Assembly: GCA_017987115.1 (NCBI GenBank)
Contig: JAGNUG010000004.1
Span: 1,445-65,444, forward strand
Origin: Flavobacteriales bacterium
GTDB lineage: Bacteria; Bacteroidota; Bacteroidia; Flavobacteriales_F; PHOS-HE28
Reading direction: 5' to 3'
DNA: 64,000 bases
How positions within the stretch are numbered: position 1 is the stretch's first letter; every line of letters begins with the position of its first letter. Below the pieces are notes generated by a model that was given only the letters and a program-made list of their open reading frames with translations, did not search any database and was not told the origin of the DNA. Positions 34,949 through 38,780 of this stretch are shown piece by piece. Both the position numbers and the translations under genes were made by a program.

Positions 34949-35710
34949 CTACTTTGCGATGAAATTCTTTGGCTTGCCGGCCTTGTACCACTTCAGCAAC
35001 GTATCGATCATGTGCTCGATCTTCCTTGCATCGGCCCACGTACTGCGGAACACAAGGTTGCCATCCTTGTCAACTAAATAGGCCCCGTTTGGTGCACGGC
35101 CGTAGTTGTTGAAGGTTGCATCGTCCATGCCATCCACAAGTACCGGTAGTTCTCCCAGTTGCGAGAACTGCGCAGCATAGTGGGTCTTCTGTTCAAGTGT
35201 GGTGGGGATCGGGAATTTCTTGAAATTACCTTTGTCGGATGGATGCATTTCCCTTCCGTAAATAACGAAGATGTCCACGTCTTCATTGTCGTATTTCTTG
35301 GCCAATGCGCTCCAACGTTCCATCTGCACACGCGCCGGTGGACTGGTTATACTGCCGAACATGAACGCTCTGATCCTGCCAGACTTACCGCTCAATGAAT
35401 AGTTTCCACCACTGATCACCTCAGGAAGCGAGAAGTCATGGGTCTGTGGCACCATTCCACCACCTTCACTGTAACTTCGGATCTCGCGGATGGTCGTGCG
35501 CATCATCTTATCGAAATTCATACGCCACATGTTCACCTGCTTGCGCATTTTCTTGATCTCCTTCTTGGTATACGCATTCAAGTAGAAGTCCAGATCGTCA
35601 TGAAATACCAACGCTGAATCCGAAGGGTACCACGATGGGTCCCAATTATTGAGCTGGGTATACCCTTGGAAAGAGAACAGAAAGGTTAGCGATAGTAGGA
35701 ATTGGCGCAT
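34949..35710 (-). CDS. Secreted iodothyronine-deiodinase-like (thioredoxin-fold) protein
   Basis: FGSITSPP (cf. FGSCTUPP), IYGREMHPSD (cf. IYIEEAHPSD), VLVDGMDD...YG-x-x-PNGAYLVDKDG; signal peptide; TACCTTTG -7 box at 35729-35736. Confidence 0.8.
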   Translation of the reverse strand: MRQFLLSLTFLFSFQGYTQLNNWDPSWYPSDSALVFHDDLDFYLNAYTKKEIKKMRKQVNMWRMNFDKMMRTTIREIRSYSEGGGMVPQTHDFSLPEVISGGNYSLSGKSGRIRAFMFGSITSPPARVQMERWSALAKKYDNEDVDIFVIYGREMHPSDKGNFKKFPIPTTLEQKTHYAAQFSQLGELPVLVDGMDDATFNNYGRAPNGAYLVDKDGNLVFRSTWADARKIEHMIDTLLKWYKAGKPKNFIAK

Positions 35711-35796
35711 TGCTGGATCAACGAGGCTCAAAGGTAGGACTGTGGTCGGTATGCTGTGTTCGCCGGTACTCTTCGATCATCAACTTCACAGAGCAA

Positions 35797-37971
35797 TTAG
35801 AATTTGTAGCGCAATTGCAACTTCAGATCACTGCGTGTATTCCCTGCTATCTCTTGCAGGCCACTACTGCTTGAGGTCTGGTCCTGATAGAGCCACGCTC
35901 CATAACGTACCCAAATATCCATACGACGCAAGGGTGATACGCGGAACATGGCATAGGCGCGGATCCCACGACCATAGTAGGGTGGAATGGAGAATACTCC
36001 GACCAGGTCGTTCTCATAGGCATATAAACGCGCATTGTAGGTGTCGCTTTCGAACAATGCAATTCTGAATGTGGTCTCGAATGGGCTGCTCAAAGGTCTG
36101 TGTACAATGTCCTGGTAGAGTAAAAACCCATGTTCCAAGGGGCTTGATCCGCGCTGGAAATCCACGGTCTCAACACGCGTCCGAAGGCTTATGGAAGGAC
36201 TCACCTTGTAGGTGGCGTTGAATCGGTAATTGGTCTGGTCAACACTTACCAAATTGTCGATCCCATCAACATCGAAAGCCGTGTTCCTAGCACGTTCCTG
36301 ATGGCGTGCACGAACGTAGATCTCCACGCCACGGCTCGGTTTCCAGTTCAGCTGTGCCAACCAGTCAAATCCTGAATTAGGTCCATCGGTCAAGTACCGC
36401 AACCACGGAAAACTGAATTGATCGAAGTAGGCATTGAAGGTCCAACGTCTATTCGGACGGATCTCCAATCCGGTAAACAACCCATGCTCATTCCACGGAC
36501 TTCCGCCCTCCGAAAAGGCAACACTGTAGAGACCGTGATAATCCCTGCCATAGTTGCGATACAGCAGGCTCATACTTACTCGTTTGTCGAGTGAGACCAA
36601 CACACCGGTATTCATTGCCTTACCGCCATTGGAACTGGTGCTCACTTCTCCGAACCAAGTGAGGTTGCGGTAGAGGTAGTTCCAATCCACACCTGCCGTA
36701 GTATTGGTTTTACCCGTGAAATTGAACTGGCTGTAAGGCCGTGAGGTCGGTTGAAGGAATGCATCATATTGCACGTTCGCCATGGTGGCGCCAATGCTGA
36801 AACTACTTCGTGTATAACGCACATGCCCACCGATGATCTGTTCATTGATCCCGTTGCTTTTGCGTAATTCCGTGTTGGTGCGGTGGAATCCGTCTTCCTG
36901 GAAACTACTGAAGGTCACTTCCTGGATCTGTGTACCGATGGAATCATTCTGGGTAGGCAATGCGGATACATTTCCATCGATCCCTTTGCGCGAAAAGAAT
37001 CCGGTCAATTCGACATTCTTCACAACCTCGATCGTAGCAGCTCCACCGCGCAGGAAGAGATTCTCATTCACGCTGGTGTAAGGTGATAGTCCTATGGCGT
37101 TGCGTTTTACGTTCATGGTAAAACTGCTCTTGCTGGAGAAGGCCAATCCGTTCCAGAATGTCAATCCTTGGCCGAATTGTGCTTGGTAATCGCCGATCGC
37201 CACTGCTTTCAAACGGCCGATATCACGGAGGAAAAGATGTGCGCTGTAGTAATCAAATCCTTGTTTTTGTGAGCCTTTGAAGAATTCCTCTCCTTCGTCT
37301 TTTTCAGCAGTGATGCCGAAGCTTACGTTCTGGCGATACCGGAATCTGTAACGCGTATAGATCCGGTAAGGACTACCGAGATACACCTTGTTGTTCGCAC
37401 GCAATGAATCACGCACCGCTGGGTCGTCGTAGTTCGGTAGTGGATCACCATCCGGATCATAATATTCCTTCCCGAACGGGTTGTTGCGATCCATGAACCC
37501 TTTGCGTTCCTCAATGTTCATGGTACTACGGATCAGTACTTCACTACCGCCTTGGGAAAAGATCTCCTTCAAATTGGCCCGTGTACTTTTCGCATTCTCA
37601 CGCACTGTAACAAAGGGTCGGATCAGTTCGATGGTCTCTGCATCCAGGCCATTGACCGTTTGCAGTTCATAAAAGCTCTGCATCTTGCCGAACTTCCTAA
37701 TGTGTTCAAGTATCGTGCTGACTTGGACATCGCTCAAAAAGATCAAGCTGTTCAGCTCTTGGGCATCGGTATGGTTCAGGTCGATCGGGTTCTTCAGTCG
37801 ATCCGTCAGTTGATCAACAAGTGCGGTAAGGTCAACGCTGCTATCATCGCCCAATTGATCACTGGCTGCTTCTATCCGTTGCTCAATAATGTCACGTGGT
37901 ATCACATCCTCCTGCGCTTGCACATACATACAGACACAGAACATGGGTATGGCTGCTAAGGCCTTTTTCAT
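35797..37971 (-). CDS. Helix-hairpin-helix (ComEA-like) domain outer-membrane beta-barrel protein
   Basis: Signal peptide; IDLNHTDAQELNSL...ELQTVNGLD HhH repeats; long amphipathic-strand C-terminus ending LQLRYKF. Confidence 0.8.
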   Translation of the reverse strand: MKKALAAIPMFCVCMYVQAQEDVIPRDIIEQRIEAASDQLGDDSSVDLTALVDQLTDRLKNPIDLNHTDAQELNSLIFLSDVQVSTILEHIRKFGKMQSFYELQTVNGLDAETIELIRPFVTVRENAKSTRANLKEIFSQGGSEVLIRSTMNIEERKGFMDRNNPFGKEYYDPDGDPLPNYDDPAVRDSLRANNKVYLGSPYRIYTRYRFRYRQNVSFGITAEKDEGEEFFKGSQKQGFDYYSAHLFLRDIGRLKAVAIGDYQAQFGQGLTFWNGLAFSSKSSFTMNVKRNAIGLSPYTSVNENLFLRGGAATIEVVKNVELTGFFSRKGIDGNVSALPTQNDSIGTQIQEVTFSSFQEDGFHRTNTELRKSNGINEQIIGGHVRYTRSSFSIGATMANVQYDAFLQPTSRPYSQFNFTGKTNTTAGVDWNYLYRNLTWFGEVSTSSNGGKAMNTGVLVSLDKRVSMSLLYRNYGRDYHGLYSVAFSEGGSPWNEHGLFTGLEIRPNRRWTFNAYFDQFSFPWLRYLTDGPNSGFDWLAQLNWKPSRGVEIYVRARHQERARNTAFDVDGIDNLVSVDQTNYRFNATYKVSPSISLRTRVETVDFQRGSSPLEHGFLLYQDIVHRPLSSPFETTFRIALFESDTYNARLYAYENDLVGVFSIPPYYGRGIRAYAMFRVSPLRRMDIWVRYGAWLYQDQTSSSSGLQEIAGNTRSDLKLQLRYKF

Positions 37972-38780
37972 TTGAACCTGTAGTTCAAACCGATCATCGG
38001 TGTCGCGCCTAATTGTGAGCGAACGGCAAGCGCCAGATCAATATCCAATTTCTTGTACCGGATGCCTGCACCGAAGTGCCCTTGGACCGGACCAGTGCTT
38101 ATGCCAGTGCGAAGGAAAAGGACTGAATTCGGATGGTATTCCGCACCGAACCTGAATTGCTCCCCGCGATCAATGTCCTTTTCCACATCCGCGGTCATCA
38201 AGAACTTGGGGCTGAACGTATAGACCAGACCAGCACGTAGTATGGTAGGGATTGCTTCATCGTATGGTCCTCCGATCTTCGCCTTGTTCAAATTGTATGC
38301 ATGCGCTCCGATCCACAATTCATCCGTGATCTTGGCCTGCATTCCGATCTCCGCCGTGAACGCACTCGCACTTCCGTAATTCTCTCCTAAACGAACACCC
38401 AGGTAATCGAATTGCACAGCGACACGTATGCCCTCACCGAAGCGCATGGCATAACCCAAACTTCCTTTGCTTTGGTTGTACAAAGAATAGCCGAACCGAT
38501 CAGCCCCAATACCCAATGTCCCCTTGCCCAATGGTATGGCTACAGCCAATCCTTGGTGCGCGAGATCCGATGAAAGAAAATGTTGCTGATAAAAAATTCC
38601 CGCTGCGGGAACTTCCAGTGCTGCAAGCCCCGCCGGGTTCAACCGTATGCTCCAGAGATCACTTAAGGCCAAGCCGGAATAACCCATTCCGGCAAAACGA
38701 GCGCCCATGGGCAGATCCTCTCCACCTGCACGGATCAGTGGTGAGCTAAGTAGTAAAAGGATCGCAAGTATTGGTCGCAT
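37968..38780 (-). CDS. PorV/PorQ-like (FadL-type) outer-membrane beta-barrel
   Basis: Signal peptide; GARFAGMG...NPAGLA hatch motif; alternating strands; C-terminal LNYRFK. Confidence 0.75.
   Translation of the reverse strand: MRPILAILLLLSSPLIRAGGEDLPMGARFAGMGYSGLALSDLWSIRLNPAGLAALEVPAAGIFYQQHFLSSDLAHQGLAVAIPLGKGTLGIGADRFGYSLYNQSKGSLGYAMRFGEGIRVAVQFDYLGVRLGENYGSASAFTAEIGMQAKITDELWIGAHAYNLNKAKIGGPYDEAIPTILRAGLVYTFSPKFLMTADVEKDIDRGEQFRFGAEYHPNSVLFLRTGISTGPVQGHFGAGIRYKKLDIDLALAVRSQLGATPMIGLNYRFK

Follow-up and report, generated by a model that had tools for sequence, protein, structure and literature searches.

What does a deiodinase-fold protein do when the redox-active residue by which its bacterial relatives are defined is missing, and no other cysteine is present? 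The question is raised by a gene in a 64,000-nucleotide stretch of the genome of a Flavobacteriales bacterium (contig JAGNUG010000004.1; the whole stretch is hereafter called the window). The coding sequence, at positions 34949..35710 of the minus strand, specifies an exported Cys-free protein of 253 amino acids (P0001) that matches the deiodinase family Pfam PF00837. A previous reading of the letters alone (the sequence-only reading) had aligned the motif FGSITSPP with FGSCTUPP of the iodothyronine deiodinases, which places Ser at the selenocysteine (Sec) position, and had proposed either a redox-inactive protein binding or scavenging halogenated aromatic compounds in the periplasm, or a protein using different chemistry. 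Our analysis favours a periplasmic, redox-dead deiodinase-fold protein whose pocket, together with a new N-terminal module, may bind a small ligand or a partner protein (probability about 0.5); that the function is binding rather than catalysis is what we infer.

Bacterial deiodinase-like proteins have been described as Sec/Cys forms, the function of which is presumably redox (Zhang, Fomenko and Gladyshev 2005, PMC1088965; PMC13188914), and the motif given for them in a review's table is UxxC (PMC13188914). They share with the protein studied here the Pfam family, the bacterial origin and the lack of an assigned function (PMC1088965), but they are defined by a redox-active U or C, whereas the clade described below has neither. 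In the literature searched we found only Sec/Cys forms and no description of Cys-less deiodinase clades. The clade is thus an order-wide, Cys-less group within bacterial deiodinase-like thioredoxin-fold proteins, which have been catalogued since 2005 solely as Sec/Cys redox proteins: a near-universal single-copy gene of an uncultured Bacteroidia order keeps the deiodinase scaffold without a redox residue at the site. It offers a natural experiment on the role of the deiodinase pocket (loop-D and the Glu/His network) apart from Se/S chemistry, and a 27 kDa, Cys-free protein predicted to be soluble is a tractable entry to the ligands of the bacterial family. The names 'deiodinase-like protein' and 'redoxin domain-containing protein' should be used with caution in annotation, as they imply an activity impossible for this protein.

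Fold and export of the Cys-free protein

The open reading frame (ORF) starts with ATG at 35710, ends with TAG at 34949-34951 and contains no in-frame TGA. The start proposed by the ORF finder, TTG at 35731, was rejected: it falls within the promoter box described below, and every orthologue begins at the ATG of MR.... The motif FGSITSPP comprises residues 118-125 (35336..35359, minus strand). In the alignment with mouse Dio3, Ser123 (codon AGT, 35342-35344) occupies the position of Sec, and Ile121 (codon ATA, 35348-35350) that of the proximal Cys. The second motif, REMHPSD, comprises residues 153-159 (35234-35254, minus strand), and the number of Cys residues in the 253-residue protein is zero. 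The motifs, the two codons and the Cys-free translation are exactly as the sequence-only reading had reported them.

The protein exceeded the gathering cut-off of the Pfam profile T4_deiodinase (PF00837) by a modest margin (33.7 bits against 27, E 3.1e-8), residues 115-215 aligning to positions 106-210 of the 237 in the profile; a scan of the whole genome gave the same result. Scores with AhpC/TSA (PF00578, 15.2 bits, cut-off 26) and Redoxin (PF08534, 13.9 bits, cut-off 26.6) were below threshold. The NCBIfam profile NF038285 (deiodinase_rel) gave 64.7 bits, short of its cut-off of 250, the match covering only profile positions 161-325 of 347. In a phmmer search of PDB sequences the top match was mouse Dio3 in its Sec-to-Cys crystal form (4TR3, E 2.7e-6), with FGSITSPP on FGSCTCPP and EMHPSD on EAHPSD. 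The loop-D regions of the two proteins were also aligned, interrupted only by two gaps of 2 residues. The motif match with Dio3 and the Pfam score are far beyond chance.

Structure prediction led to the same family. A first AlphaFold run, based on 34 close homologues, left the N-terminal module with a predicted local distance difference test score (pLDDT) below 55, and its Foldseek list mixed ResA, peroxiredoxin (Prx) and Dio structures. It was superseded by a second run with 97 sequences including the Cys-bearing sister clade, which gave a mean pLDDT of 90.5 and a predicted template modelling score (pTM) of 0.86. The deiodinase/Prx-type thioredoxin-fold domain, delimited by the Pfam and PDB matches, the model and Foldseek, extends over residues 91-245 (34976..35440, minus strand). 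In the model it consists of βN1 (94-97), βN2 (103-105), β1 (113-119), α1 (124-139) and β2 (145-151), followed by a 20-residue loop, αD (172-183), βD (190-192) and α2 (198-203), and by a C-terminal part with β3 (210-213), β4 (219-223) and α3 (228-243). This predicted order of elements is that of the published Dio2/Dio3 topology (PMC11592359). The loop between β2 and αD corresponds, by its length and by the Dio3 alignment, to loop-D, the omega-loop of the deiodinases (residues 152-171, 35198..35257, minus strand); it begins with the kept motif Y151-x-x-E154-x-H156-P157-x-D159, of which Y151 lies just ahead of the loop.

The best Foldseek matches were mouse Dio3 (4TR3, E 1.3e-8) and Dio2 (9H48, E 2.0e-8). 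ResA/TlpA-like proteins came close behind (E ~3e-8, 14-19% identity), and the alignment spans only about 165 of the 253 residues. The model thus points to a deiodinase-type thioredoxin fold with the deiodinase insertion, and the fold named by the sequence-only reading was borne out by the Pfam threshold, the best PDB sequence match and the best Foldseek matches. An ordinary peroxiredoxin or TlpA protein without the deiodinase insertion was ruled out, since the insertion is present in the confident model.

The protein has in common with the vertebrate deiodinases Dio1-3 the Prx-like βN1/βN2, the thioredoxin core and the loop-D/αD/βD insertion, as well as the motif frame F-G-S-x-T-[site]-P-P and Y-x-x-E-x-H-P-x-D. 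It differs from them in being bacterial and periplasmic, and its site has Ser (Asn in most relatives) in place of Sec or Cys, with no Cys in the rest of the chain. Where Dio proteins have a transmembrane anchor and a linker, it has a signal peptide that is cleaved off, followed by a soluble N-terminal module of 70 residues. Unlike peroxiredoxins it has no peroxidatic Cys (PxxxTxxC), the position of their active-site Arg is taken by Gly209/Asn208, and their profiles score below threshold. The thiol-disulfide oxidoreductases TlpA, ResA and DsbE carry a CxxC at the N-terminus of α1 that is missing here, and the likeness to them is structural only.

Export was also part of the sequence-only reading, and the homologues support it. 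The predicted signal peptide, MRQFLLSLTFLFSFQGYT|Q, comprises residues 1-18 (35657..35710, minus strand), forms a helix at residues 2-13 in the models and would be cleaved ahead of Gln19 (35654-35656). The residue at +1 is Gln in 118/118 homologues, in agreement with the Bacteroidetes Q-rule for signal peptidase I substrates (PMC5837995). Because there is no lipobox Cys and too little length for a C-terminal domain of the type IX secretion system, the mature protein (235 amino acids, 27 kDa, isoelectric point 9.2) should be soluble and periplasmic, and the word 'secreted' used for it before should be understood as exported to the periplasm.

As the sequence-only reading had noted, the gene has a -7 promoter box of its own. 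This is the Bacteroidota-type box TACCTTTG (TAnnTTTG; 35729..35736, minus strand), which ends 19 nt before the ATG. Of 12 orthologous loci about 10 carry a TAnnTTT[G/A] box, 13-30 nt 5' of the ATG. The exact TACCTTTG octamer was not significantly enriched in the window (3 found, 1.3 expected), and scans for sigma-70 promoters and terminators were uninformative there, as expected for Bacteroidota.

A Cys-less clade and the residue at its active site

A word-indexed search returned 223 homologues with 60-100% identity, nearly all of them encoded in metagenome-assembled genomes (MAGs) listed by NCBI as Flavobacteriales bacterium; the annotation 'deiodinase-like protein' is attached to several. 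The gene is present as a single copy in 122/132 species of the window's GTDB order and in 88/92 high-quality genomes. Outside the order, 16 genomes of the class lacked it, giving no more than two weak and distant matches, and the genome that carries the window contains no second PF00837 gene or Cys-bearing paralogue. Pairwise comparison of 12 orthologues gave a ratio of nonsynonymous to synonymous substitution rates (dN/dS) of about 0.1-0.2, with dS saturated. The flanking adk, OmpA, MatE and barrel genes are as similar to their orthologues (60-75%) as this gene is to its own (70-71% identity). By these measures the gene belongs to the ordinary core of the lineage and is constrained by purifying selection.

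The Sec-equivalent residue was surveyed in 119 clade members: Asn was found in 101, Ser in 12, Asp in 5, Gly in 1 and Cys in none. Ser at this position, on which the sequence-only reading was built, is real in this protein but is not the rule of the family. In a tree rooted with the Cys-bearing clade Asn occupies the three deepest branches; Ser requires no fewer than 3-8 separate origins and Asp no fewer than 3. The window protein and P0003 (85% identity) form one Ser pair, and a single transition separates their Ser codon AGT from the AAT/AAC of the Asn relatives. The tree thus identifies Asn as the ancestral and dominant residue, from which Ser, Asp and Gly arose repeatedly. A derivation of Ser directly from Cys (TGT to AGT), with Ser as a relic intermediate, was rejected, as Asn stands at the base of the clade and Ser at several derived tips. 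An in-frame TGA coding for Sec was also looked for in the relatives; one orthologue was flagged with one TGA, which is its stop codon.

In the confident model residue 123 directly precedes helix α1, which starts at residue 124, and so occupies the N-cap position. This position of a helix is classically taken by Asn, Ser, Asp or Gly (Richardson and Richardson 1988), and also by Thr. The site residue therefore looks structural rather than catalytic: the N/S/D/G spectrum fits capping and not a nucleophile, and the modelled position agrees with it. The 'different chemistry' of the sequence-only reading, taken as a Ser nucleophile, is unlikely for the same reason, given that residue 123 sits at the α1 N-cap, that Asn is the ancestral residue and that Asp and Gly also occur.

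Human DIO1 illustrates how much depends on this position in a true deiodinase: the U126S and U126A forms are catalytically inactive, and the Cys form has about 10% activity (PMC9141512). In the clade studied here the site is never Cys, and the mature protein has no Cys at all in 112/118 homologues. On this evidence thiol/selenol redox chemistry appears to be excluded, be it deiodination, the reduction of peroxide or the exchange of disulfides, and the proposal that the protein is inactive in Sec/Cys redox chemistry is supported.

The Cys-bearing sister clade and remodelling of the old site

Searched with a profile, 1.84 billion representatives yielded 1420 matches. The nearest group outside the clade shows homology along the entire protein (E 1e-45 to 1e-32) and carries the motifs FMF[VA]AMTCPPA ... 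YSRERHPGE with a single Cys, at the site. Its members come from MAGs of Woeseia, Chromatiales, Burkholderiales, Pseudomonadales, Myxococcota, Bryobacterales, Opitutales and Chloroflexi; no neighbouring genes conserved across phyla were found around them. Of the Pfam profiles, AhpC/TSA gives the Cys-bearing proteins 46-60 bits and T4_deiodinase only 24-28 bits, which places the family near the Prx/Dio border; the ancestral clade looks, from these scores, peroxiredoxin-like rather than dehalogenase-like.

The two clades have P124, P125, Q129, W133, Y151, E154, H156, N208, W225 and D227 in common, E154 and H156 being invariant in both, and remnants of the N-terminal region (W23, F36, Y47) are kept in the Cys clade. 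In contrast to the window protein, the Cys-bearing proteins have an N-terminal membrane anchor that is not cleaved, the site Cys, Ala at position 120 and Pro at position 91. The residues fixed only in the Cys-less clade include H37, D38, D39, D41, S81, E82, G83, G85, M86, R114, G152, D159, G209, H233, W241 and Y242, as well as H91 and S120, where the Cys clade has Pro and Ala, respectively. As read from these alignments, the loss of Cys came with remodelling around the old site and a tightening of the N-terminal module.

The N-terminal module, typical of the clade, comprises residues 19-90 (35441..35656, minus strand; delimited by the homologue alignment, pLDDT 86-92 in the second model). It is predicted to form a β-hairpin (27-29/34-36) and three helices (49-56, 61-66 and 68-81), and the homologue alignment revealed two invariant motifs in it, FHDDLD and YSEGGGM. 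A Pfam scan of the module alone returned only noise, and Foldseek with the second model found no PDB counterpart.

Beyond the sister clade, the site could be aligned in 95 other representatives. It is Cys in 62 of them, Ser in 18, Thr and Ala in 5 each, Gly in 2, and Arg, Asp and Asn in 1 each, while Glu154 is kept in 92/95 and His156 in 88/95. In this sample Cys-less sites are common among bacterial deiodinase-like domains (33/95), and the E-x-H pair is more conserved than the Cys. Loss of the Cys is thus less exceptional than the sequence-only reading had implied.

Several side observations were made in this comparison. Ser120 is common to the Cys-less clade and the animal deiodinases (Dio3 Ser167), the Cys clade having Ala, so that the Cys-less proteins are nearer to the animal motif G-S-x-T-x-P-P than their Cys-bearing relatives are. 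About 30 proteins of 105-180 amino acids (P0153, P0158, P0165, P0167 and others) begin a few residues past the Sec/Cys site; they are probably C-terminal halves of Sec (TGA) genes cut by gene callers. Three proteins of 450-510 amino acids (P0180, P0194 and P0246) end in a deiodinase-like domain whose site residue is Ser and show, in the N-terminal half, weak LTXXQ or Metal_resist (CpxP/Spy-like) matches. They represent a second, unrelated Cys-less deiodinase-like architecture.

Binding, catalysis and other functions

The course of events that we favour begins with a one-Cys, membrane-anchored extracytoplasmic enzyme of the T-C-P-P / E-x-H-P type as the ancestor, a type still found in Proteobacteria, Myxococcota, Acidobacteriota, Verrucomicrobiota and Chloroflexi. 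On the branch to this Bacteroidia order Asn took the place of Cys, and it gave way in turn to Ser (AAT to AGT, including this sublineage), Asp or Gly in several sublineages. The residue would now only cap the N-terminus of α1, so that no thiol/selenol redox chemistry would be possible. Purifying selection has kept the old active-site shell (Ser120, Thr122, Pro124-Pro125, Tyr151, Glu154, His156 and loop-D), and new invariant residues were gained, namely His37-Asp38-Asp39-x-Asp41, Ser81-Glu82-Gly83, His91, Arg114 and His233. The present protein would be exported by the general secretory pathway and cleaved by signal peptidase I, with Gln19 as the mature N-terminus, and its lineage-typical 70-residue N-terminal module would pack on the deiodinase/peroxiredoxin-type thioredoxin fold. 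The kept pocket, formed by loop-D anchored by Glu154/His156 and by Ser120 and Thr122, would bind a periplasmic ligand or partner jointly with this module.

Thioredoxin-fold modules without redox activity are known: the b/b' domains of PDI and the thioredoxin-like domain of CnoX/YbbN are examples. Peroxiredoxin 6 has a second, Cys-independent activity, a phospholipase with a Ser-His-Asp site on the Prx fold. These proteins may serve as precedents for a Cys-independent Trx/Prx fold acting as binder, holdase or other catalyst; the analogy is functional only, as no sequence relationship with the window protein is detectable beyond the fold. Retention of the Glu and His is compatible with binding. 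In Dio2 and Dio3 the Glu is buried and anchors loop-D (PMC11592359), and by analogy the retained Glu and His can be structural.

Several observations weigh against a mere binding protein. In the alignments the active-site shell around the lost Cys is conserved at least as strongly as in true enzymes, and residues were newly fixed near the old site (Ala to Ser120, Pro to His91, Gly152, Asp159 and Gly209), a pattern that suggests adaptation of the site to a new activity rather than simple loss. Gene context does not help to decide: it is syntenic but uninformative, an upstream outer-membrane barrel gene and a 129-amino-acid ORF being variably present.

The newly fixed residues are also part of the case for the best surviving alternative, a neofunctionalised non-thiol enzyme, which we regard as possible but on balance unlikely. 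It could be acid/base or metal-dependent (a hydrolase or isomerase, for instance), or it could have an anion site at the α1 N-terminus, with a candidate site composed of the Glu154-His156-Ser120-Thr122 network and His37, Asp38, Asp39, Asp41, Ser81, Glu82, His91, Arg114, Arg127 and His233. Many clade-specific invariant polar residues, including Ser120 and His91 by the old site, were gained with the loss of Cys; the N-terminal module is very tightly conserved, the purifying selection is typical of a working core gene, and across the bacterial superfamily the E-x-H is more conserved than the Cys. Peroxiredoxin 6 would again be the precedent. However, neither a known catalytic motif nor a Pfam family could be matched to the N-terminal module, Ser120 is replaced by Gly, Asn or Ala in some sequences, and no operon partner points to a pathway. 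More doubtful is a broader version, in which the scaffold was converted order-wide to a thiol-independent periplasmic enzyme or anion/metal receptor, using the Glu-His-Ser-Thr network at the N-terminus of α1 and the invariant His, Asp and Glu residues of the N-terminal module. On this view the Cys-less third of bacterial deiodinase-like proteins, and the stronger conservation of E-x-H than of Cys, would mean that the core chemistry of the superfamily in bacteria is other than thiol/selenol redox.

Handling of a metal by Met and His residues (Cu(I) or another metal, cf. periplasmic Met/His copper proteins and Sco proteins, the latter of thioredoxin fold), or a role of Met as sacrificial antioxidant, appears improbable. 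The Cys-free mature protein has 11 Met in 235 residues, five of which (55, 64, 70, 86 and 117) are invariant, as are His91, His156 and His233, and some of the other Cys-less deiodinase-domain proteins have N-terminal regions weakly resembling LTXXQ/Metal_resist. But several of the Met residues probably belong to the core, Met117 being located in β1 and common to the Cys clade, no MxxM or HxxM motif is recognisable, and there are no copper or metal resistance genes nearby.

Still less probable is the function proposed by the sequence-only reading, a periplasmic protein that binds or scavenges halogenated aromatics (iodo- or bromo-tyrosines, thyronine-like compounds, halophenols) without turnover, for which we found no specific support. 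A deiodinase-type pocket with loop-D and the Tyr/Glu/His/Ser/Thr network is indeed retained: the equivalents of Dio3 Ser167, Thr169, Tyr197, Glu200 and His202 are Ser120, Thr122, Tyr151, Glu154 and His156, all present and conserved. However, two Dio3 residues implicated in thyronine recognition, the substrate clamp Arg275 and the second relay His, His219 (PMC11592359), appear to have no equivalents here, Arg275 aligning with the invariant Gly209 and His219 falling in an alignment gap. No dehalogenase, halogen-related or aromatic-catabolic genes are nearby, the sister clade scores as AhpC/TSA, which leaves an ancestral halo-aromatic substrate unsupported, and bacterial deiodinase-like proteins have no demonstrated substrate (PMC1088965).

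A one-off degenerate allele or decaying pseudogene of a Cys-containing enzyme can be dismissed with near certainty, in view of the intact single copy throughout the order, the low dN/dS, the conserved promoter box and signal peptide, the lack of a Cys-bearing paralogue in the genome and the absence of Cys from the site in all 119 clade members.

As for the neighbouring genes, synteny with MatE (convergent), OmpA and the HHH-barrel gene is conserved among relatives, and no constant co-directional partner gene was found in the loci of the clade. In the window two genes on the same strand lie directly upstream (35797-38780, minus strand), their ORFs overlapping by 4 nt (37968-37971). One encodes a 724-residue protein with a ComEA-like HHH_3 motif and a large body that is probably a β-barrel, syntenic in relatives with 67-72% identity; the other encodes a 270-residue OMP_b-brl protein. 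The conserved 129-amino-acid ORF (MALQHVRLD...), for which neither a Pfam match on record nor an obvious signal peptide exists, is absent from the window and from locus L005. Several relatives have it between the HHH-barrel gene and the deiodinase-like gene on the same strand, at L001:5545-5934 and L002:4470-4859, and also in L007 and L010.

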